DNA of 47,325 nt from positions 1 to 47,325 of the forward strand of contig CAZLFP010000006.1 of assembly GCA_964558935.1 (NCBI GenBank), read 5' to 3'. The position numbers were made by a program, and so were the translations under genes. Each line of letters starts with the position of its first letter. Positions within the stretch are counted from its first letter, which is position 1. This document shows, piece by piece, positions 1 to 32,129 of this stretch. This DNA is from an uncultured Gammaproteobacteria bacterium (GTDB taxonomy: Bacteria > Patescibacteriota > Patescibacteriia > 2-01-FULL-39-33). Under the pieces are notes generated by a model. The model saw only the letters and a list, made by a program, of their open reading frames with translations, was not told the DNA's origin and made no database searches.

Positions 1-49
1 CGTAACAAGGCACCCGTAGCGGAAGCTGTGGGTGGATCACCTCCTTTCT
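1..49 (+). rRNA. rrs: 16S rRNA 3' terminus (partial; gene begins upstream of window)
   Basis: CGTAACAAGG...GGATCACCTCCTTTCT is the conserved 16S 3' end including anti-SD CCTCC. Confidence 0.9.
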
Positions 50-143
50 AGGGAGTAATCGACAGATGTCTCATTGAGTGATCTGTTAATTAGTCGAAGA
101 TTAGTTAAGTTTTTGTCGCTTTTAAGTTGTTAAGTTGAAAAGA

Positions 144-197: not shown

Positions 198-1214
198 ATG
201 AATCAAAGTAAGGACAATTTATTTGCCAACCAACCCAAGTACCGCTTGGACCAGTTTTACCGAGCTTTATTTGATCCTCAGATTAAAGCTTGGGATGAGA
301 TAACAACCTTACCTCAGGCTTTAAGGAACCAATTAAATGAAAGCAAGCCTTTTTATGCTTTTGAAGCCAAAAAGATTTTAGAAGCTGAAGATAATTCTTC
401 ATATAAAGCTGTGTTTGAAACTCGGGATGAATTATTATTTGAAAGTGTGTTAATGAAAAACACCAGAGGTCAGTATACTATTTGTTTGTCCAGTCAGATT
501 GGTTGCAAAATGGGCTGCACTTTTTGCGCTACCGGACAAATGGGGTTTAAAAGAAATTTAACGGTTGAAGAAATCATTGACCAAGTCAGGTTCTGGCAAA
601 GATATGGAGATAAAGAGATTGAAGATTTCAGGATCAGTAATTTGGTGTTTATGGGTATGGGTGAACCTTTGGATAATTATGACAATGTAGTTAAAGCCAT
701 TGATTTGATTTTAGAATACACAGATATTGGCAAGACTAAGATTATAGTTTCAACAGTTGGTTTAATCGGGAAGTTGGAAAAGATTTTAACTGATCCGGCT
801 TGGCCTCAGGTTAGAATCGCCTTGTCCCTGCAAACTACGGATTATGCCACCAGAAAAGAATTAATCCCTGCAACCGAAAAAGATTTTTTTGACAAATTTA
901 AATCTTGGTCTCAAAGATATCTGAAAAAATACGGCAACCGGAATAATTACCTGACTTTTGAATATGTGATGATGAAAGGTAAAAATGACAGTTTAAAAGA
1001 TGCTGAGGGTTTAAGTCAGTATGCTCATGAGTGCCAGGTTGATAAGATAAACTTAATACCGTATAACTCAATTGGCTCTGATGTAAGTCGATCTGATTCT
1101 AAGAAGATAGAAGAGTTTAAAGAAAGATTGGAGGAGAAAGACTTGACTGTTACCATTAGAAAGAGTTTAGGCCAAGAGATTAAGGGAGCTTGTGGGCAAT
1201 TGGTTGGGAATTAA
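198..1214 (+). CDS. rlmN: 23S rRNA/tRNA A2503-type radical SAM methyltransferase RlmN
   Basis: radical-SAM CKMGCTFCATGQ (CxxxCxxC), RlmN/Cfr-like length, C-terminal GACGQL. Confidence 0.85.
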   Translation: MNQSKDNLFANQPKYRLDQFYRALFDPQIKAWDEITTLPQALRNQLNESKPFYAFEAKKILEAEDNSSYKAVFETRDELLFESVLMKNTRGQYTICLSSQIGCKMGCTFCATGQMGFKRNLTVEEIIDQVRFWQRYGDKEIEDFRISNLVFMGMGEPLDNYDNVVKAIDLILEYTDIGKTKIIVSTVGLIGKLEKILTDPAWPQVRIALSLQTTDYATRKELIPATEKDFFDKFKSWSQRYLKKYGNRNNYLTFEYVMMKGKNDSLKDAEGLSQYAHECQVDKINLIPYNSIGSDVSRSDSKKIEEFKERLEEKDLTVTIRKSLGQEIKGACGQLVGN

Positions 1215-1224
1215 AAAAAGAGTT

Positions 1225-1587
1225 TTATAACTCTTTTTTAAGTAACCGATAGACATCCTCAGGATACAATTCTCCTTTGTCTTTGCCCTTTAGTTTAGAT
1301 AAGCCGGTACAGCGAGCTACGTATTCGGCACAATCCGTACCACTCTTAATTTCAGATTCTAATTTTTGGTCATCAATATCTATGTTGTCCAAAAAGACAG
1401 CCTTTTTAAATTCCTGATCTTTTAACCTGTTTAAATCTGAAACTTTATACTTACCCTGACTGAAGCATTCATACACCTTGTTGTTTGAAACAATGCCGGT
1501 ATGCCAAAAACTGCCTTTGAAATTGGTTAAAGGCGGATAATCCTTAGGACGATCTTCCAAGGGAAGAAAAAAGATTTGTGAAGTCAT
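1225..1587 (-). CDS. hypothetical protein, possibly NlpC/P60-LRAT-like papain-fold hydrolase
   Basis: Start moved to ATG 1587 because the longer track ORF runs into tRNA-Pro. FWHTGIV...VYE and DCAEYVARC resemble the His / Cys motifs of LRAT-type hydrolases (weak). Confidence 0.5.
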   Translation of the reverse strand: MTSQIFFLPLEDRPKDYPPLTNFKGSFWHTGIVSNNKVYECFSQGKYKVSDLNRLKDQEFKKAVFLDNIDIDDQKLESEIKSGTDCAEYVARCTGLSKLKGKDKGELYPEDVYRLLKKEL

Positions 1588-1592
1588 AATTG

Positions 1593-1666
1593 TCGGGGTG
1601 AGAGGACTTGAACCTCCGGCCTCTTGGTCCCAAACCAAGCGCTCTAGCCAACTGAGCTACACCCCG
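1593..1666 (-). tRNA. tRNA-Pro (anticodon UGG)
   Basis: Cloverleaf read by hand: acceptor CGGGGTG/CACCCCG, anticodon arm CTTGG-TTTGGGA-CCAAG, T arm GGAGG-TTCAAGT-CCTCT. Confidence 0.9.
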
Positions 1667-1714
1667 TTAAAATAACAGTTAACAGCTTTAAAACCGTTAA
1701 CCGTTATTTGTCAG

Positions 1715-1786
1715 TGCCGAGGGGCAGGATCGAACTGCCGACACAAAGATTTTCAGTCTTCTGCTCTACCACTGAGCTACCTCGGC
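1715..1786 (-). tRNA. tRNA-Phe (anticodon GAA)
   Basis: Acceptor GCCGAGG/CCTCGGC, anticodon loop CTGAAAA, T arm GGCAG-TTCGATC-CTGCC. Confidence 0.9.
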
Positions 1787-1792
1787 CCACTG

Positions 1793-1866
1793 TGGGCAAT
1801 GGGGGACTCGAACCTCCGACCTCGTCGTTATCAGCGACGCGCTCTAACCAGCTGAGCTAATTGCCC
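1793..1866 (-). tRNA. tRNA-Ile (anticodon GAU)
   Basis: Acceptor GGGCAAT/ATTGCCC, anticodon arm CGTCG-CTGATAA-CGACG. Confidence 0.9.
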
Positions 1867-1914: not shown

Positions 1915-2712
1915 TTAGACTTCTAGAATTTTTTTGGAGGCCATTAAACTTAAAGTACCGGCATATCTGCCTTTGCCCAAGAAAATCGGGTAAAAATCCT
2001 TGTCAGACTTAATCTGTTTTCTGTTGGCTGTACCTATTTTCTGACCCTTTGCAACCAATTTAAAATCTTTTAATTCTTTACTGGGCGTGAACTTATCTGA
2101 TACCTTGTAAATGTCAAAAATGGTGTATAGATCTTTGTTGGGGTAGGTGGTTTGCTGACCTTTTAAGACTCCCAGATTTCTTAAGATGGTTTTAACGTCT
2201 CTAACCGCTCTAGGATAATTACTCCCGGTTTTATCCGGACCGTATTCCAAAGCAAGGCCGGCTTTCACACTACCGATTAAAAAATTACCCTCACCAAAAA
2301 CCCTTTCTCTAGCCAGCATAACTTTCTTAATGGGAGTTATTCTTAATAACTGTTTGGTTTTGGAATTTAAATTAGTGATAACTGCAGCTTTATCAAAATT
2401 GGAATTGGTGGCATGAATGTCGATAACAATGTCAAAGTCTTTCAGTTCTTGTTTTAATTTGTAAGCCACCAAGTCTTCATGTCTGCCATTAGCTTTGCCG
2501 GGGAAAGCTCGATTCAAATCTTTTTGTATAAACCTTTTATTCAATTTAATGGCCGGTAGGTTGCCTAAAAAGAAAGCAATTAAGCCTTTCTCGTATTTTA
2601 AAGTTGCCAGTTTATCGATAACTTTCTGTCCAATAATTTCATCACCATGAACGCAACCCACAATGGCGATTTTAGGCTGGCCTTGTCCCAGTTGGTTGAT
2701 TTGATGTTTCAT
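1915..2712 (-). CDS. succinylglutamate desuccinylase/aspartoacylase (AstE/AspA) family zinc deacylase
   Basis: GCVHGDEIIG, DLNRAFPG and DIHAT motifs typical of the AstE/AspA branch of M14-like hydrolases. Confidence 0.75.
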   Translation of the reverse strand: MKHQINQLGQGQPKIAIVGCVHGDEIIGQKVIDKLATLKYEKGLIAFFLGNLPAIKLNKRFIQKDLNRAFPGKANGRHEDLVAYKLKQELKDFDIVIDIHATNSNFDKAAVITNLNSKTKQLLRITPIKKVMLARERVFGEGNFLIGSVKAGLALEYGPDKTGSNYPRAVRDVKTILRNLGVLKGQQTTYPNKDLYTIFDIYKVSDKFTPSKELKDFKLVAKGQKIGTANRKQIKSDKDFYPIFLGKGRYAGTLSLMASKKILEV

Positions 2713-2751: not shown

Positions 2752-2778
2752 AGAGCGCGAGCTTAAAACTCGCGCTCT
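2752..2778 (-). terminator. 10-bp GC-rich hairpin after ligase A
   Basis: AGAGCGCGAG-CTTAAAA-CTCGCGCTCT; only a weak U-rich tail on the minus strand. Confidence 0.5.
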
Positions 2779-2781
2779 AAT

Positions 2782-3576
2782 TCAGTTCTTGGCGGCTTCA
2801 CGGCAGATAATCAGGCAGAGTTTAGCCCAATTGACCATCAGCCGGATGTCGTCAGTCGTGTCAAACATCCTAAATTCGATCGCTCCATACTTGGAGATGC
2901 GAATCATGTCCCACCACATACCCAGATCCCGCTCAAACTGTTCGGTTCGAGCTCGCTGGTACAATCCGTGCAAATTGCGACAGGGAATCAGCTGAGGCGT
3001 GCGCTGGACATGCTGTTCAAACAGATGAACACGCTGACCCTGGCTGAAACTACCGATATCCACCAGATGATCGTAATGATCGATCAGGCGATCATAAACT
3101 CGGATAGCCGTTTTCAGATCCGGCATGCCAATTAGAATGTGGACGCTGGAGAGACGCCTAACCATGTCTCGACCGGCTTCAGACAGCCAGTTATTGGCAA
3201 TGTCTAGGTAGCGAGGATGATCTACGATCTGAGTCGGAATATCCGGTGGAGCAATCGGCCAGAAAACACGCTTAACTCCGACCGCTTGTTCCATTTCACC
3301 GGCCATCGCATCTATCTGTTTAATAGCTGCTTCCAACTCATGGCTCGAGCAGGGCTGAGCCAAACGTTCTTCAAAATGACTGACGTTGAATTCCGGTCCG
3401 AAGCAGTGCGACAGGCCATTGCAATGATGCATAACCCAGTCCATAACTGAGTCAATAGCTGGTACAGCTTGGTTGGTGGTTGGGTTAACCAGCTGGGATT
3501 CGCGTTCCCAGCCGATCTTCCAGGCATGATGGGGTTGAAACTGGAATTGTTCCACAAATCTTGTGATCTCTTTCAC
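2782..3576 (-). CDS. short GCS2/amidoligase-like carboxylate-amine ligase (glutamine-synthetase fold), paralog A
   Basis: GTG start 5 nt after GGAGG. KIGWERE, EER, VHILIGMPD and GAIEFRMFDTT resemble the G-x-E-x-E, HVHVG and T-x-E-x-R-x-x-D motifs of YbdK/GCS2-type ligases. About 100 aa shorter than YbdK. GC higher than the flanks. Confidence 0.55.
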   Translation of the reverse strand: MKEITRFVEQFQFQPHHAWKIGWERESQLVNPTTNQAVPAIDSVMDWVMHHCNGLSHCFGPEFNVSHFEERLAQPCSSHELEAAIKQIDAMAGEMEQAVGVKRVFWPIAPPDIPTQIVDHPRYLDIANNWLSEAGRDMVRRLSSVHILIGMPDLKTAIRVYDRLIDHYDHLVDIGSFSQGQRVHLFEQHVQRTPQLIPCRNLHGLYQRARTEQFERDLGMWWDMIRISKYGAIEFRMFDTTDDIRLMVNWAKLCLIICREAAKN

Positions 3577-3707
3577 GACTTCCTCCTATGTTGTTTAAGA
3601 CCAAGGGTGAGGTGTAATTACCTCAGACATATTCTTGATGTATAAATTAAGTTAGTAACTGGTCGATTAACCTAAATTCATTAAGAATATGTCTTAAGTA
3701 ATTAAAC

Positions 3708-3731
3708 AAAAAACTGACCCGGGTAGATCAG
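3708..3731 (-). terminator. intrinsic terminator of the Ile attenuator
   Basis: minus-strand RNA CUGAUCU-ACCC-GGGUCAG followed by UUUUUU (3713..3708), inside the 5' leader of ligase A. Confidence 0.6.
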
Positions 3732-3760
3732 TCGCGCTTGTAAAATTAAGACTAACCAAT

Positions 3761-3814
3761 CTACCTAAGATCAGGAATAATAATGTTAATAATAATTTGG
3801 TTAGCTTGTAACAT
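3761..3814 (-). CDS. leader peptide MLQANQIIINIIIPDLR (6 Ile codons)
   Basis: ATG 6 nt after a TATAAT box; 17 codons containing ATTx3-AAC-ATTx3; stop lies inside an antiterminator segment. Confidence 0.6.
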   Translation of the reverse strand: MLQANQIIINIIIPDLR

Positions 3815-3820
3815 AATTGT

Positions 3821-3848
3821 ATTATACCTTAAATCTGGGACTTGTCAA
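3821..3848 (-). promoter_or_regulatory. promoter of Ile leader / ligase A
   Basis: minus strand TTGACA (3848..3843) -16 nt- TATAAT (3826..3821). Confidence 0.6.
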
Positions 3849-3869
3849 ATAAAATAAAAGGGATATAAT
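3842..3869 (+). promoter_or_regulatory. promoter of the 62-aa gene, back-to-back with the ligase A promoter
   Basis: TTGTCA -16 nt- TATAAT; its -35 overlaps the minus-strand -35. Confidence 0.5.
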
Positions 3870-3896
3870 AATAGCAGGTAGTGAAAGGAGGTAGTA

Positions 3897-4085
3897 ATGG
3901 AAGACTTGCGCAAGAGAACGGAAGCCCAGATTCAAGAGATTTTGGGCGACGACAACATGTGGTATGCAGGTGAACGCTTAGGTCATTCACCCAACCCGAA
4001 CGAAGCGGCGATGCACTTTGTTAATCATGGCGGAGCAGCTGATTTTGCCCAACGCTGGGCAGAGTCGCATCGGGGCGTGGCGTAA
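3897..4085 (+). CDS. small hypothetical protein (62 aa)
   Basis: strong RBS GAAAGGAGG 6 nt before ATG; higher GC; no family recognised. Confidence 0.6.
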   Translation: MEDLRKRTEAQIQEILGDDNMWYAGERLGHSPNPNEAAMHFVNHGGAADFAQRWAESHRGVA

Positions 4086-5214: not shown

Positions 5215-5243
5215 TTGACAGATTATAATTCTTAGATTACAAT
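5215..5243 (+). promoter_or_regulatory. promoter of the aromatic leader / pheA operon
   Basis: TTGACA -17 nt- TACAAT, 9 nt before the leader ATG. Confidence 0.6.
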
Positions 5244-5252
5244 TTAAATACA

Positions 5253-5315
5253 ATGAAAAAAATACATACAAACAATTGGTTTAGCTTTTATTTTACTGAC
5301 TGTATAGCCAGCTAG
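5253..5315 (+). CDS. leader peptide MKKIHTNNWFSFYFTDCIAS (W-F-S-F-Y-F)
   Basis: 20-codon ORF with 5 aromatic residues in a 6-codon stretch, stop inside the antiterminator stem, upstream of pheA. Confidence 0.65.
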   Translation: MKKIHTNNWFSFYFTDCIAS

Positions 5316-5342
5316 TTTTGTGTATATTGAGTAAAGAAGACT

Positions 5343-5367
5343 AACTGGCTGAAAGGTCGGTTTTTTT
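5343..5367 (+). terminator. attenuator terminator upstream of pheA
   Basis: AACTGGC-TGAAAG-GTCGGTT plus T run. Its 5' arm can instead pair with 5306-5318 (13-nt antiterminator with one mismatch and one wobble). Confidence 0.6.
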
Positions 5368-5384
5368 AATCATAAATAAGTATT

Positions 5385-5945
5385 ATGAAAATTGGAGTTT
5401 CCGGTGGTCCGGGCAGCTTCTCTGAAGAAGCGGCTGACTATTACTGCCATAAAAATAAATTGGCAGGTTATGAAATTAAGCATTTAATTTCCGTGGAAAA
5501 TGTTTTGCAAGCTTTGGAAAAAGATGAAATAGATATGGGGGTTTTTCCCATTGAAAATTCCAATGGTGGTATTGTGTATGAGGCAGTCTATGCCATGAGT
5601 CAGCATTTGTTTACAATCCAAAATCTGTTTGAAATAGATATTCGGCACAATCTCATTGCCCATCCTGAAGTTAATAAACAGGATATTACTTTAATTGCTT
5701 CTCATGACCAGGCTCTTAAACAGTGTAAGATGTATTTGAGAAGAGTTTGGCCAAAGGTGGAGATTAAGGAATGGGCAGATACGGCAGATTCTGTCAGAGC
5801 GATCAAAGACGGAGAACTGCCCAAGACTGCAGCCGGTATAGCTTCCAAAAAAGCGGCCGATCTGTATGGCATGCAGATTCTAGAAGAAGGTATCCAGGAT
5901 CTTAAATTCAATTTCACCACTTTTTTAGCGGTGACTAAGCAATAA
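5385..5945 (+). CDS. pheA: prephenate dehydratase domain protein (no ACT domain)
   Basis: GGPGSFSEEAA, PIENSNGG and SHDQALKQC motifs; ends right after NFTTF, where canonical PDTs have TRF. Confidence 0.75.
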   Translation: MKIGVSGGPGSFSEEAADYYCHKNKLAGYEIKHLISVENVLQALEKDEIDMGVFPIENSNGGIVYEAVYAMSQHLFTIQNLFEIDIRHNLIAHPEVNKQDITLIASHDQALKQCKMYLRRVWPKVEIKEWADTADSVRAIKDGELPKTAAGIASKKAADLYGMQILEEGIQDLKFNFTTFLAVTKQ

Positions 5946-5949
5946 TCAT

Positions 5950-6690
5950 ATGAAAATCGCAATCGTTGGCTTTGCCCGTTTCGGGCAGTTATGGGCCGAT
6001 TTAATGAAACAATTCGGACAAGTTATGGTTTTTAACCGATCTGACAAAGCTGATTTGGCTCAAGGTATGGAATTCTATACTTTTGACCGATTAGATAAAA
6101 TACAGGAGGCAGATTATATCTTTTGTTGCGTGGCTATGTCGGCCACTTTGGAAACTTTGGAAAGAATCAAGCCTTTTGTTAAAGATGGAGTAGTGGTTAT
6201 GGATGTATGCTCAGTTAAGGTTTTGCCTTGCCAATGGTTGGAAGAAGTTTTTGGTTCTGAAGCGGATCGGATAGAGATTATGGGGACTCACCCCATGTTC
6301 GGACCGGACAGTGCCAAAACTGGTTTAACAGATAAACAAATGGTATTGTGTCCTTTAAATATTAGTCAGGATAAGCTAGACTTTGTAAAAGGTATTTTTA
6401 ATGAATTGAAACTTAAAATTATCCAAACTACGCCTCAGGATCATGACCGACAGACAGCTTACAGTCTGGCCTTAGTTCATTATTTGGGGCGCGGCTTGGA
6501 TAGGCTGGATTTGGATTCCATTTACATTACCACGCTGGGCTTTGACCGCTTATTGGAAATTCACGGTAATGTGGTTAATGATTCCCAAGAGTTGTTTAAT
6601 GATTTGGAAAAACTGAATCCGTACGCTCAAGCTGCGAGACAGAAGTTAAGACAAGTTTTGGATGATCTGGAAACGGATCTAAACGGTTAG
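5950..6690 (+). CDS. tyrA: prephenate/arogenate dehydrogenase
   Basis: N-terminal Rossmann IAIVGFARFG, catalytic-region GTHPMFGP. Confidence 0.7.
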   Translation: MKIAIVGFARFGQLWADLMKQFGQVMVFNRSDKADLAQGMEFYTFDRLDKIQEADYIFCCVAMSATLETLERIKPFVKDGVVVMDVCSVKVLPCQWLEEVFGSEADRIEIMGTHPMFGPDSAKTGLTDKQMVLCPLNISQDKLDFVKGIFNELKLKIIQTTPQDHDRQTAYSLALVHYLGRGLDRLDLDSIYITTLGFDRLLEIHGNVVNDSQELFNDLEKLNPYAQAARQKLRQVLDDLETDLNG

Positions 6691-6709
6691 AAAAACCAAG
6701 GAGGAAGCA

Positions 6710-7879
6710 ATGGATATTCGCAGGGATCACATGCCGCCTTCATTGTTGCAAGAGTATGCAATTAAGGCCGGTCAAGAAGGAGTTGTTAGTTTGGCGATTG
6801 GGCAATCTGAAATGGAGCCACCTTCAGGATTGCTTAACCTAATCGTAGAGTACATTGTCAGAAAAGGCTATGCCCGTTACACGGCAGCGGTTGGAGATCG
6901 AGATGTCAGAAGCAAGTTGGTAGAACTTTTCAGCCGTCTGGGTGTTAAGGATTTGAATGTTGACCAAATAGCTATGAGTCACGGAGCCAAGCTACTGTTG
7001 GACGTATCCATGCGAGCCATGGCTGACATTGACGATGTGGTGATTTGGTTTTCCCCCGGCTATACTTACGGACGAACTGCCAAGCATAACCGAATTGAAT
7101 CCATCTGTTTGCCGACTGCAGATCATGGCTTCCGACCCGATCTGGAAGCTTTGAGCCGAGTGTTGGAGGATTTACCGGCTTGGAAAAAACCGATTGTCAT
7201 CGTTAACAATCCGGTTAATCCGACCGGTTGTGTCTGGCAAAAAGATGAACTTCAAGCTTTGGTGGAAATTCTGGCCAAGTACCGGGCCAAGGTGATTACG
7301 GATGAAACTTATGCTGATCTGGTTTTGGACGGTCCACCGATTACCTGTCTGGGTTCTTTTGATGACATTAGCGATCAAACCATTGTAATCCGTTCCGGTT
7401 CCAAAGAATTAAGAGCTCCGGCTTACCGGATTGGTTACATGGCTGTTCCTTTAAGCTACATGCCAAGAGTCAAGGACATTTTAAACGATTGTGTTGGCTG
7501 TCCTAATCTGTTGGCCAGACTGTCGGCTCCTTTCCTGTTGGAGCATCAAAGGTTCGCTCAGGAACAGTTGCCGGCTTTAAGAGCTAAATGTGGCTTGGTT
7601 GGAGAATGGTGCCGTCAGAATGGCCTGGTTCATGCTCCCATGGAAGGGGCTTTTTACAGCTTCATTGACTTTGATCCGATCTTGCAAGCCAAGGATTTTA
7701 AGGATACGATTGAATTGGCGGACCGCCTGCTGATTGAAGCCAAAGTCGGCATTATTCCGGGGCGAGCTTTCAGTTCGGCTCCCAAGCCGGATTGTGACAG
7801 CTGGGCCAGGATTTCCTTTGCCGGCGATAAGTTTGATTTGGTGGAGGGATTGGAGAGGATTAGCCGTTATATCGGCTGA
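6710..7879 (+). CDS. class I/II PLP-dependent aminotransferase
   Basis: NPVNPTG, SGSKELRAPAYRIGY (PLP lysine context); strong RBS AAGGAGG; GC above backbone. Confidence 0.8.
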   Translation: MDIRRDHMPPSLLQEYAIKAGQEGVVSLAIGQSEMEPPSGLLNLIVEYIVRKGYARYTAAVGDRDVRSKLVELFSRLGVKDLNVDQIAMSHGAKLLLDVSMRAMADIDDVVIWFSPGYTYGRTAKHNRIESICLPTADHGFRPDLEALSRVLEDLPAWKKPIVIVNNPVNPTGCVWQKDELQALVEILAKYRAKVITDETYADLVLDGPPITCLGSFDDISDQTIVIRSGSKELRAPAYRIGYMAVPLSYMPRVKDILNDCVGCPNLLARLSAPFLLEHQRFAQEQLPALRAKCGLVGEWCRQNGLVHAPMEGAFYSFIDFDPILQAKDFKDTIELADRLLIEAKVGIIPGRAFSSAPKPDCDSWARISFAGDKFDLVEGLERISRYIG

Positions 7880-7918: not shown

Positions 7919-7937
7919 TCATATATAATTTAAAGAA

Positions 7938-7991
7938 ATGAAATATATAATTACAAATTGGTTTTTCTGGACTGATCATCCGGTCGGTTAG
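7938..7991 (+). CDS. leader peptide MKYIITNWFFWTDHPVG (W-F-F-W)
   Basis: 17-codon ORF. Homologous at DNA and peptide level to the 5253 leader (ACAAATTGGTTT, ACTGA). Its last codons CCG GTC GGT TAG form the antiterminator arm. Confidence 0.65.
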   Translation: MKYIITNWFFWTDHPVG

Positions 7992-8014
7992 TTTTTGAAA
8001 TATTTTTTTACTAC

Positions 8015-8037
8015 ACCGACCGTTTGGTCGGTTTTTT
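8015..8037 (+). terminator. attenuator terminator upstream of ligase B
   Basis: ACCGACC-GTTT-GGTCGGT plus T6. 8015-8022 can instead pair with 7981-7988 (8 Watson-Crick bp). Confidence 0.65.
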
Positions 8038-8107: not shown

Positions 8108-8911
8108 GTGCAGCAGTTCTTGGCTCTTTTCAATTTCAATCCGGATCATGCCTTCAAGGTAGGCGTTGAACGGGAATGTTTTCTAACCAAGAATGGTCAA
8201 ATTGTACCCATGGCTTTTGAAGTTCTAAGCCGGCTCAAGGCCAGTGTTAATGGACGGTCTCATTGCTATGGTTATGAGCTGTCGGCTTGTCAGTTGGAAG
8301 AGAGGACTTCCGGTCCGGTTATTCTGTCCGAGGTTGAAGCGGAATTGGAGCGTAATCATGAGGAGATTACGGCCATTTTAGAACCGCTTGGTTTAAAACG
8401 CTTATTTTGCGGAGCAGCACCCTTTGATGTACCATTGGATGTTTATCCGGACAAGCGTTACCAACGGATTACGTCTGATCAGTCGGTTGAATTTATCCGG
8501 GCGGCCTGTCGGGTGGCGGGTGTGCATATTCTAGTTGGCATGCCGGATGCTCAAACCGCCTTAAGGGTTTACAACCAAGTGATTCGGTATTTGCCTGAGC
8601 TGTTTGAATTGGGAGCTACGCCGGAGAGAATTGAAATCTACCGGCGCGCAGTACTCAAGAGTGAGCGTATTCAACTGTTTGAAGATTATCTGGTTGAAAC
8701 GTCTATTCCACCGGCTTACGCATCCTGGCAAGATTTTTACCACCGGGCAGTGGCAGATGGATTTGATTCTGACCCGCGTCGTTTGTGGGATTTCATTCGG
8801 ATTTCCAAGCATGGTGCCATTGAGTTTCGCACTTTTGACACCACTCAATCGATTCAACAAGTGCAAGATTGGGCCCATTACTGTTGGCAACTGTGTTTGA
8901 ACGCCGCCTAA
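8108..8911 (+). CDS. short GCS2/amidoligase-like carboxylate-amine ligase, paralog B
   Basis: GTG 8 nt after GGAGG preferred over the in-frame ATG 8075. Shares FxFxPxHAxKxGxERE, SHCxGxE, EER, VHILxGMPDxxTAxRVY and IRISKxGAIEFRxFDTT with the 2782..3576 protein. Confidence 0.55.
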   Translation: MQQFLALFNFNPDHAFKVGVERECFLTKNGQIVPMAFEVLSRLKASVNGRSHCYGYELSACQLEERTSGPVILSEVEAELERNHEEITAILEPLGLKRLFCGAAPFDVPLDVYPDKRYQRITSDQSVEFIRAACRVAGVHILVGMPDAQTALRVYNQVIRYLPELFELGATPERIEIYRRAVLKSERIQLFEDYLVETSIPPAYASWQDFYHRAVADGFDSDPRRLWDFIRISKHGAIEFRTFDTTQSIQQVQDWAHYCWQLCLNAA

Positions 8912-32045: not shown

Positions 32046-32056
32046 ATATTTTGCAG

Positions 32057-32129
32057 TAGGCCAGGGTGGGATTGAACCACCGACCCCAACGTTATAAGCG
32101 TTGTGCTCTAACCCCTGAGCTACTGGCCC
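32057..32129 (-). tRNA. tRNA-Ile (anticodon UAU)
   Basis: Acceptor GGGCCAG/CTGGCCT (G1-U72), anticodon arm CAACG-CTTATAA-CGTTG, T arm GGTGG-TTCAATC-CCACC. Confidence 0.8.

Follow-up and report, generated by a model that had tools for sequence, protein, structure and literature searches.

The element described here lies at positions 3708–3848 on the minus strand of a 47,325-nt stretch of contig CAZLFP010000006.1 (assembly GCA_964558935.1; GTDB lineage Patescibacteriota), which was analyzed over its full length and is referred to as the window. It consists of a promoter, a short open reading frame (mini-ORF) with a run of isoleucine codons and a set of alternative RNA helices that end in an intrinsic terminator upstream of a ligase gene (ligase A; Table 1). 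An earlier reading of the same letters, the original prediction, had described the arrangement as a leaderless Ile-run leader peptide with a three-helix switch and had held that the controlled gene is not an ilv gene. The latter point was borne out, as ligase A has weak NCBIfam matches to YbdK/GCS2 carboxylate-amine ligases and its closest solved structures, found with a family profile, are those of YbdK (1R8G and 1TT4; E ~1e-5). Because ligase A has its own strong terminator at 2778..2752, the gene is monocistronic; the next gene past it encodes an AstE/AspA-like deacylase and has its own promoter.

The bases of the promoter and their spacing to the ATG of the mini-ORF, which lies 6 nt past the −10 element and 184 nt 5′ of the GTG start of the ligase gene, are exactly those predicted, as are the extent of the ORF and its six ATT codons. 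Perfect promoters of the form TTGACA-N16-18-TATAAT occur twice in the window while 0.05 are expected, and the ATT repeat ATTATTATTNNNATTATTATT occurs a single time with an expectation of 0.02. Six of the seven residues in the leader run are Ile, compared with a maximum of four of seven elsewhere (10,425 windows of seven residues in 29 long ORFs), and AUU is the most frequent Ile codon in this genome (62%). When the entire window was scanned for short ORFs that contain a codon run and precede a hairpin with a U-run, the leader ORF, a paralogous leader at 5253 and one poly-Lys ORF were the only results. We infer that transcription starts at or beside the A of the ATG at 3814, which would make the mini-ORF the first part of a leaderless mRNA. 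A divergent promoter is present at 3842..3869 on the plus strand, and its −35 element (TTGTCA, 3842..3847) overlaps the leader −35 element at 3848..3843 base for base; competition between them for RNA polymerase is possible. The divergent promoter drives an ORF for a 62-aa protein (3897..4085, plus strand) that is preceded by a good ribosome-binding site and matches nothing in Pfam or NCBIfam.

The leader RNA contains all three of the competing pairings originally proposed. Segments 1 and 2 carry an exact 8-bp inverted repeat (helix 1:2; −14.0 kcal/mol for the extended duplex), segment 2 can alternatively pair with segment 3 over 10 bp including three G-U pairs (helix 2:3), which extend to 12 bp (−13.1 kcal/mol), and the core of segment 3 forms the 5′ arm of a terminator with a U-run of six (−8.7 kcal/mol for the short terminator by itself). 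The terminator was also picked up by a terminator scan, which calls its stem at 3733..3712 followed by UUUUUUGUUU (U6-G-U3). The count of three was nevertheless too low, because a fourth pairing exists: CUGAUCU is present in two copies, one inside the ORF (element ‘a’) and one in the terminator 5′ arm, and both can pair with the GGGUCAG of the terminator 3′ arm (−8.6 kcal/mol for the duplex of ‘a’ with the 3′ arm, a:3′-arm). As a consequence, the whole leader at minimum free energy folds into a single long hairpin that abuts the U-run and in which a:3′-arm is stacked on helix 2:3 (−21.7 kcal/mol for these two helices and −24.4 kcal/mol for the whole fold). Since this long hairpin includes helix 2:3 and still ends at the U-run, helix 2:3 blocks a terminator-like stem only if ‘a’ is unavailable. 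The fold of the 107-nt leader has a z-score of −3.2 and was beaten by one of 200 shuffled sequences.

Table 1 Features of the attenuator locus, of the other leaders in the window and of leaders at homologous loci on other contigs
Feature	Position	Strand	Details
Leader promoter	3821..3848	-	−35 TTGACA 3848..3843; 16-nt spacer; −10 TATAAT 3826..3821; 12/12 consensus matches
Leader mini-ORF	3761..3814	-	ATG 3814..3812; 17 codons plus UAG; translation MLQANQIIINIIIPDLR, then stop; codons ATG TTA CAA GCT AAC CAA ATT ATT ATT AAC ATT ATT ATT CCT GAT CTT AGG TAG
Regulatory codon run	3776..3796	-	AUU x3, AAC, AUU x3; codons 7-9 and 11-13
Segment 1 (anti-antiterminator 5′ strand)	3797..3807	-	AAGCUAACCAA; within ORF, codons 3-6
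Element ‘a’ (copy of terminator 5′ arm)	3768..3774	-	CUGAUCU; codons Pro-Asp-Leu; 1 nt past last Ile codon
Segment 2	3752..3765	-	GGUAGAUUGGUUAG; contains stop UAG 3763..3761; pairs with segment 1 or segment 3
Segment 3 (antiterminator strand)	3722..3735	-	CGACUGAUCUACC; core ACUGAUCU 3732..3725 is the terminator 5′ arm
Second copy of CUGAUCU	3725..3731	-	In terminator 5′ arm
Terminator 3′ arm and U-run	3708..3720	-	GGGUCAG 3720..3714; U6 3713..3708; GUUU next
Helix 1:2	3804..3797 / 3759..3752	-	CUAACCAA / UUGGUUAG
Helix 2:3	3763..3754 / 3733..3724	-	UAGAUUGGUU / GACUGAUCUA; 12-bp form 3765..3754 with 3733..3722
Terminator	3731..3708	-	CUGAUCU-ACCC-GGGUCAG plus U6
Imperfect hairpin	3612..3707	-	96 nt; 32-nt arms, 84% complementary; −35 kcal/mol; z = −4.2
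Ligase A gene	2782..3587	-	Shine-Dalgarno AGGAGG 3587..3582; GTG start 3576; coding sequence 3576..2782; 264 aa
Leader B	7924..8037	+	−10 TATAAT 7924-7929; mini-ORF 7938..7991, MKYIITNWFFWTDHPVG, then stop
Ligase B gene (second paralogue)	8108..8911	+	GTG start 8108; 267 aa
Leader C	5215..5367	+	−35 TTGACA 5215-5220; −10 TACAAT 5238-5243; mini-ORF 5253..5315, MKKIHTNNWFSFYFTDCIAS, then stop
L001 mini-ORF			MKQYRNNYYFWFTGLSG
L007 mini-ORF			MNYRINKINSWFFFFTDTEVG
L027 mini-ORF			Nearly identical to L007
L009 mini-ORF			...NFFFFYFFFAPS...
L012 mini-ORF			MIRIQANNWFFGFYFTDPRTS
L013 mini-ORF			MNKFRLNNWRSEMTDLRVR
L014 mini-ORF			MLRTQFNNWFSFFFTDLRPVEFDLRA
L018 mini-ORF			...SWWTG...
L032 mini-ORF			MINIAQGNFFFWLNTDHLAIS
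L011 mini-ORF (GATase-ligase operon)			MQSINVKNTGKFFWFFTGLGG
L026 mini-ORF (GATase-ligase operon)			MKNIKRANSFFGFYFFTDHKVS
L031 mini-ORF (GATase-ligase operon)			METIKSNNVFFFWYFTDLRG
L016 T-box	453..676		Rfam T-box 43.6 bits
L017 T-box	1..110		Rfam T-box 25.5 bits
L025 T-box	1189..1371		Rfam T-box 28.8 bits
L033 T-box	2169..2385		Rfam T-box 24.8 bits
L037 T-box	2365..2598		Rfam T-box 25.4 bits

Together with the comparison with other leaders described below, which gives strong support, these features fit the core of the original prediction, in which a leaderless Ile leader peptide decides whether an antiterminator or a terminator forms ahead of a gene outside the ilv group. From the sequence, the modeled folds and this comparison, we consider it likely that the element is a ribosome-mediated transcription attenuator through which the supply of charged tRNA-Ile governs the monocistronic YbdK/GCS2-like ligase gene. 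In this model, transcription would begin at or beside the A of the ATG, the ORF would be translated as a leaderless mRNA, and five pieces of RNA would interact, namely segment 1, ‘a’, segment 2, segment 3, and the terminator 3′ arm with its U-run. If no ribosome is present, the RNA would adopt either helix 1:2 together with the short terminator or the long hairpin of a:3′-arm stacked on helix 2:3, and both folds would set a closed stem against the U-run and stop transcription at ~3708. A ribosome that has reached the stop codon would mask ‘a’ and segment 2, and the short terminator would form and cause termination. A ribosome stalled with its A site on Ile codons 11–13 would mask segment 1 and ‘a’ and leave segment 2 free, and this would be the sole position to do so; helix 2:3 would then win over the short terminator, the 3′ arm would remain single-stranded, and RNA polymerase would read through into the ligase gene. 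Owing to the second 5′-arm copy in ‘a’, the default state would be doubly off, and a productive stall would be limited to the final codons of the run. The model thus predicts a transcript that starts at the ATG and can end at 3708, an ORF that is translated and an outcome that responds to Ile.

To place the leader in a comparative context, ligase loci with their flanks were taken from a metagenome scan and their upstream regions inspected for leaders. In total, 15 leaders, including the one studied here, have a common design across the ligase family or its associated operons, in which a strong promoter and a near-leaderless mini-ORF with a codon run are followed by a switch between alternative pairings and by an intrinsic terminator. 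Two of them are in the window itself. Leader B, with the terminator ACCGACC-GUUU-GGUCGGU plus U6 ending at 8037, precedes ligase B; leader C, with a terminator that ends at 5367, is followed by genes for prephenate dehydratase, prephenate dehydrogenase and an aminotransferase (5385..7879, plus strand) and resembles an attenuator of the Phe/Tyr type for an operon devoted to aromatic amino acids. The others are upstream of ligase homologues (L001, L007/L027, L009, L012, L013, L014, L018 and L032) or precede GATase-ligase operons (L011, L026 and L031). In the homologous leaders, the ATG lies 6–16 nt past the −10 element without a Shine-Dalgarno sequence, and the mini-ORFs are 17–36 codons long across the 15 leaders, with 17 codons in both the studied leader and leader B. 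The codon run consists of Phe, Trp and Tyr codons in 14 of the 15 leaders (just one or two aromatic codons at this position in L013 and L018) and of Ile codons solely in the studied leader. As to the conservation in relatives asked for originally, the mini-ORF and the switch recur in the 14 other leaders, with runs that are aromatic there.

The pairings are conserved in the family through changes on both strands. An alignment-free permutation test on 13 leaders compared the duplex energies of segments with their own partners to those with the partners of other leaders, and cognate pairing was stronger for helix 1:2 (−11.8 versus −9.5 kcal/mol; p = 0.002), helix 2:3 (−16.1 versus −11.4 kcal/mol; p <5e-5), a:3′-arm (−8.8 versus −7.1 kcal/mol; p = 0.007) and the terminator helix (−12.9 versus −8.7 kcal/mol; p <5e-5). 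Pairs were also counted in a hand-built block alignment of 12 leaders with eight pairs per helix. The fraction of paired cells was 77% for helix 1:2 (four of eight pairs double-changed; 5/500 shuffles with a covariation score as high), 92% (91.7%) for helix 2:3 (five of eight; 0/500), 96% (95.8%) for the terminator helix (three of eight; 0/500) and 92% (91.7%) for a:3′-arm (two of eight; 13/500). Helix 1:2 provides an example in the change from CUAAC/GUUAG to UCAAC/GUUGA, and a shift of the partner strand by one to three columns lowers pairing to 4–45% for every helix. Thus, the covariation expected among orthologous leaders is present for all four helices at the level of the family, while ligase A itself has no orthologue whose leader could be compared. 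A whole-leader alignment made with MAFFT was too poor for structure work and was dropped.

The position of ligase A in its family bears on how far this comparison reaches. A single-sequence protein search with ligase A returned two homologues, and no orthologue was present among 5.8 billion proteins; a profile of 16 sequences retrieved 201 proteins of the family (E <= 1e-20), hardly any of them named. The family is almost confined to Patescibacteria (Candidate Phyla Radiation, CPR), and its named homologues are from CPR. Exact-sequence look-ups with ligase A gave no further contig, and scans of 185,579 representative genomes for short peptide patterns found no ligase relatives, which, given the method, is weak evidence of absence. 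No other member, ligase B (35%) included, exceeds 37% identity to ligase A, which has the invariant residues of the family while differing at several nearly invariant ones, e.g., in the YELSACQ block. By comparison, ligase B is typical of the family and is 47–59% identical to ligases with aromatic leaders. For the IF-2 of the window, identity to database proteins does not go beyond 71%, and its named matches are from Patescibacteria, Buchananbacteria and Falkowbacteria.

We used a mask model to follow the effect of ribosome position. In this model, the RNA up to the leading edge of the ribosome, set at the first A-site nucleotide plus 9 to 14 nt, is deleted, and the readout is the probability (P) that the six bases preceding the U-run are paired. 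In the studied leader, the 3′ arm is paired at P ~1 everywhere except when the A site is on Ile codons 11–13 (3784..3776), where P has a minimum of 0.02, and this result holds across offsets from +9 to +14. Once segment 1 and ‘a’ are masked, helix 2:3 (−13.1 kcal/mol) outcompetes the short terminator (−8.7 kcal/mol). The model agrees with the idea that a ribosome at the stop codon permits termination (P ~1 there), and it predicts relief of termination for a stall on codons 11–13 and none for a stall on codons 7–9. In nine of the 15 leaders (the studied leader, B, C, L001, L007, L014, L026, L031 and L032), opening is confined to such a narrow window, placed at the 3′ end of the run.

Several observations weigh against the attenuation model. 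First, because ligase A has no orthologue, the Ile run is a single observation and conservation is demonstrated for the paralogues and the wider family only; moreover, the ligase has no known link to isoleucine. Second, the block alignment was anchored on the pairings, and the pair counts are accordingly biased towards structure. Third, in the mask model the terminator never opens at equilibrium in five of the 15 leaders (L011, L012, L013, L018 and L027), L009 has a deviant terminator for which the model is uninterpretable, and in the studied leader a stall on codons 7–9 is predicted not to relieve termination. Fourth, if pairs are allowed to form across the ribosome, relief is weak and confined to codon 11 (P 0.28–0.38 at offsets of at least +12) because segment 1 re-pairs with segment 2 behind the ribosome. 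In our judgement, such spanning pairs are sterically improbable because few nucleotides are free on either side of the 70S ribosome.

Some of these observations would also fit a decayed or non-specific derivative of an aromatic leader, in which a leaky, translation-dependent terminator remains, the Ile run carries no specific signal, and promoter strength and leakage set expression. The Ile run has been seen once and lacks orthologues, ligase A is a fast-evolving orphan paralogue, and the permissive version of the ribosome model yields weak relief. What makes this explanation unlikely in our view is the state of preservation of the locus: the four helices, the 17-codon ORF, the frame of ‘a’ and the promoter are all intact, and ligase A has kept the family's invariant residues. 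Also, the six in-frame AUU codons resemble a directed replacement of UUU/UUC rather than drift, and their Ile density is unmatched in the long ORFs of the window.

That the mini-ORFs are read as codons is suggested by their spacing and composition. The ATG-to-‘a’ spacing ranges between 33 and 63 nt and is a multiple of 3 in 15/15 leaders, implying that insertions and deletions came in whole codons. Among the eight codons before ‘a’ in 13 leaders, Phe, Trp or Tyr account for 57/104 in frame versus 17/104 and 33/104 in the other frames, and the runs mix UUY with UGG and UAY and are coherent at the amino-acid level only. These data, and the consistent presence of an ATG 6–16 nt past the −10 element, argue against an RNA-only switch that would sense a ligand, a protein or a tRNA directly and in which the ATG and its frame would be incidental and the AU- or U-rich stretch would be the loop of helix 1:2. 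It is true that the run sits in that loop, that U-rich loops would give Phe codons in some frames, and that the ATG is not preceded by a Shine-Dalgarno sequence. However, the leader matches no curated RNA family: in a search of the Rfam 15 families, the amino-acid leaders and the T-box among them, no part of the leader reached a gathering score, and at E values up to 10 there were just spurious microRNA and small RNA matches, located on the downstream hairpin. We regard an RNA-only switch as very unlikely.

Control by tRNA charging, as in the attenuation model, is also suggested by what replaces the mini-ORF at other loci. Five ligase homologues (L016, L017, L025, L033 and L037) have a T-box leader, i.e., a sensor of uncharged tRNA, and a terminator in place of the mini-ORF. 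All five T-boxes score below the gathering score of 93 and yet have the GGUGGCACC core. These CPR T-box leaders have a strongly reduced Stem I, a UGGC bulge and a conserved [A/G]UUGGG on the 3′ side of the Stem I internal loop, and in L037 the annotated gene start falls within the T-box; standard annotation would overlook them. Tentatively, UGGC and [A/G]UUGGG fit a UGG (Trp) specifier and a tRNA with G73, with AUU/GUU or UUG as alternative specifiers. G73 is associated with tRNA-Trp, and the Ile and Phe tRNAs in the window have A73. A ligase family in which a T-box alternates with a codon-run mini-ORF is hard to explain except by control through tRNA charging.

The T-boxes also bear on the possibility that the mini-ORF encodes a functional small peptide, perhaps a precursor or substrate for the ligase and hydrolases, with the terminator setting the peptide:enzyme ratio as in many operons for ribosomally synthesized and post-translationally modified peptides, because these five homologous ligases do without a mini-ORF; likewise, leader C is of the same type and precedes prephenate dehydratase with no ligase directly following. 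A short hydrophobic peptide gene does adjoin an ATP-dependent ligase gene and often a peptidase-like gene (AstE/AspA, peptidase C26 or GGACT), and the peptides have a common pattern of N...aromatic...T-D. Outside the run, however, conservation of the peptides is confined to sites of RNA pairing, namely Asn (AAC, in segment 1) and Thr-Asp (ACU GAC, in ‘a’), and Thr-Asp changes to Thr-Gly (ACU GGY) exactly where the terminator arm is GCCAGU or GCCGGU instead of GUCAGU. Otherwise the N- and C-terminal ends of the peptides lack conservation, even when the nearly identical L007 and L027 are compared. Conservation at RNA-pairing codons alone argues against a functional peptide, an explanation that we consider highly improbable. 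Finally, the window is 58% A+T, but that the element is a chance product of AT-rich low-complexity sequence between a promoter-like site and a hairpin is barely conceivable in light of the small expected numbers of perfect promoters and ATT repeats, the z-score of the leader fold, and the 14 homologous leaders with the same parts and covarying helices.

Returning to the attenuation model, we infer that the element is a paralogue of the aromatic (Phe/Trp/Tyr) leader family that controls the same ligase family and that, in this genome, would also control the prephenate dehydratase operon. The complete replacement of the codon run by AUU together with the strong divergence of the ligase suggests that the leader came to sense another amino acid and that the ligase probably changed its substrate as well. 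The simplest reading would be that the ligase and its leader were duplicated and that the specificity of both then changed. On a broader and more tentative level, it is quite possible that Patescibacteria have an undescribed family of ‘double-lock’ leaderless attenuators, in which a terminator 3′ arm has two alternative 5′ partners, one of them silenced only by a stalled ribosome, and that in this case the module and its ligase were duplicated within one genome and, through a rewritten codon run, acquired isoleucine as their target in place of aromatic amino acids.

Leader-peptide attenuators of enterobacteria include trpL, ilvL/ivbL, thrL, hisL and leuL. Like the classical attenuators, the studied leader has tandem codons for the sensed amino acid in a short ORF, helices 1:2, 2:3 and 3:4 that exclude one another, and an intrinsic terminator before the gene, with an outcome that would be set by the position of a stalled ribosome; based on its sequence and modeled folds, it has every sequence-level feature by which leaders are assigned to this class. 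Leader C resembles pheL, a classical enterobacterial leader-peptide attenuator (review PMC3082878), in preceding a prephenate dehydratase gene. Unlike in the classical attenuators, the studied ORF is leaderless or nearly so and has no Shine-Dalgarno sequence, segment 1 lies upstream of the regulatory codons instead of containing them, and the leader matches no Rfam leader family. Also, the terminator 5′ arm is duplicated within the ORF, and because of this second copy the antiterminator would be effective only if the ribosome covers that copy too. The host, one of the Patescibacteria, and the target, an uncharacterized YbdK/GCS2-like ligase, differ as well.

Three other systems are informative for comparison. 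Leaderless polycysteine short ORFs of mycobacteria are reported to unmask a sequestered ribosome-binding site, i.e., to act by translational control (Canestrari et al., bioRxiv 10.1101/834739). They are similar to the leaders considered here in being leaderless sensory ORFs with a run of codons for a single amino acid and in having several paralogues per genome that make up a ribosome-sensed regulon, and they differ in that a terminator with a U-run separates the studied ORF from its gene. Folding did not predict the strong sequestration of the ligase A ribosome-binding site that a mycobacterial-type mechanism would involve. Like T-boxes (RF00230), which have the same genomic position at the five homologous loci, the studied leader would read tRNA charging and switch a terminator; unlike them, it has no T-box sequence or Stem I and would sense through the translating ribosome instead of by direct tRNA binding. 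In Staphylococcus aureus, the ilv operon has a leucine-rich attenuator peptide (PMC5794164); like it, the studied leader is rich in branched-chain codons and would govern read-through outside the Proteobacteria. The Gram-positive branched-chain leaders serve ilv/leu operons and have a conventional ribosome-binding site, whereas the studied leader precedes a ligase gene and has purely Ile codons. A full-text literature search of incomplete coverage found nothing that links leader peptides or T-boxes with Patescibacteria/CPR, or T-boxes with carboxylate-amine ligases. Apparently, then, a known mechanism occurs here in a novel form, with a leaderless ORF, a duplicated terminator 5′ arm, another target gene and another phylum; the Ile-specific member stands alone within a CPR family that is well supported and apparently undescribed.

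The neighbors of the ligase genes may indicate what the controlled enzymes do. The ligase is accompanied by an AstE/AspA-like deacylase in the window and in L014, L032, L034 and the P0116 contig, by a class-I glutamine amidotransferase/peptidase C26 in L009, L010/L031, L011 and L026, by a GGACT-type gamma-glutamyl cyclotransferase in L033 and L037, and by a second GCS2 ligase in L012 and L018. In such combinations, the ligase would use ATP to form an amide bond and its partner would cleave gamma-glutamyl or N-acyl amides, which suggests a cycle in which conjugates of amino acids with gamma-glutamyl or N-acyl groups are made and cleaved. Together with the predicted induction of both by starvation for a particular amino acid, this might speculatively amount to a conjugate-based route for the acquisition or salvage of the sensed amino acid. 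These partners, and the placement of leader C ahead of prephenate dehydratase, are indirect hints that the regulated genes may act in the metabolism or supply of the amino acid that is sensed.

CPR/Patescibacteria are uncultured, host-dependent organisms with reduced genomes, and to our knowledge almost nothing is known about their gene regulation. If the leaders do form a conserved family of ribosome-sensed attenuators, these organisms would monitor the charging of individual tRNAs, and the sensed amino acid (Phe, Trp or Tyr, or Ile in the studied leader) would predict what the unstudied ligase handles or supplies. Should the double-lock reading be true, the leader codons or the T-box specifier would constitute a built-in label of substrate specificity, and the module thus labeled, which is widespread in CPR and comprises the ligase and a gamma-glutamyl/N-acyl hydrolase or cyclotransferase, may serve in amino-acid scavenging. 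The aromatic and Ile paralogues, which are neighbors in one genome, would then be a natural example of attenuator specificity being rewritten by codon replacement with the RNA switch retained, and the copy of the terminator arm in the ORF a testable variation of the textbook attenuation model.

The gap between the attenuator terminator and the ligase A ribosome-binding site is filled by the imperfect 96-nt hairpin, and it is this hairpin that the spurious microRNA-precursor matches reflect. The window contains no second copy of its arm sequence. Its 3′ arm has an alternative pairing with 3613..3597. The Shine-Dalgarno sequence of ligase A is free in the centroid fold and takes part in only weak pairing in the minimum-free-energy fold. 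Shorter hairpins occupy the corresponding place in other leaders, and L007 and L027 differ there by compensatory changes.

Additional features were observed in the window and on the contigs with homologous leaders. Directly downstream of the AstE-like gene is a cluster of tRNA-Ile(GAU), tRNA-Phe and tRNA-Pro genes (1592..1866, minus strand), and a tRNA-Ile with the anticodon UAU, an unusual means of reading AUA, is at 32056..32129 (minus strand). At 198..1214 (plus strand), the window encodes a radical-SAM 23S rRNA methyltransferase of the RlmN/Cfr family that scores 273 bits versus an RlmN cut-off of 290 and far under the Cfr cut-offs. On L001 (1840..2300 and 3582..3900), an odd A-rich sequence repeated in tandem (CTAAAAATATAAAAAA...) and a long tract rich in G precede the leader, and the end of the contig carries a 3′ fragment of a 23S rRNA gene with its best score against the archaeal large-subunit (LSU) model (283 bits).

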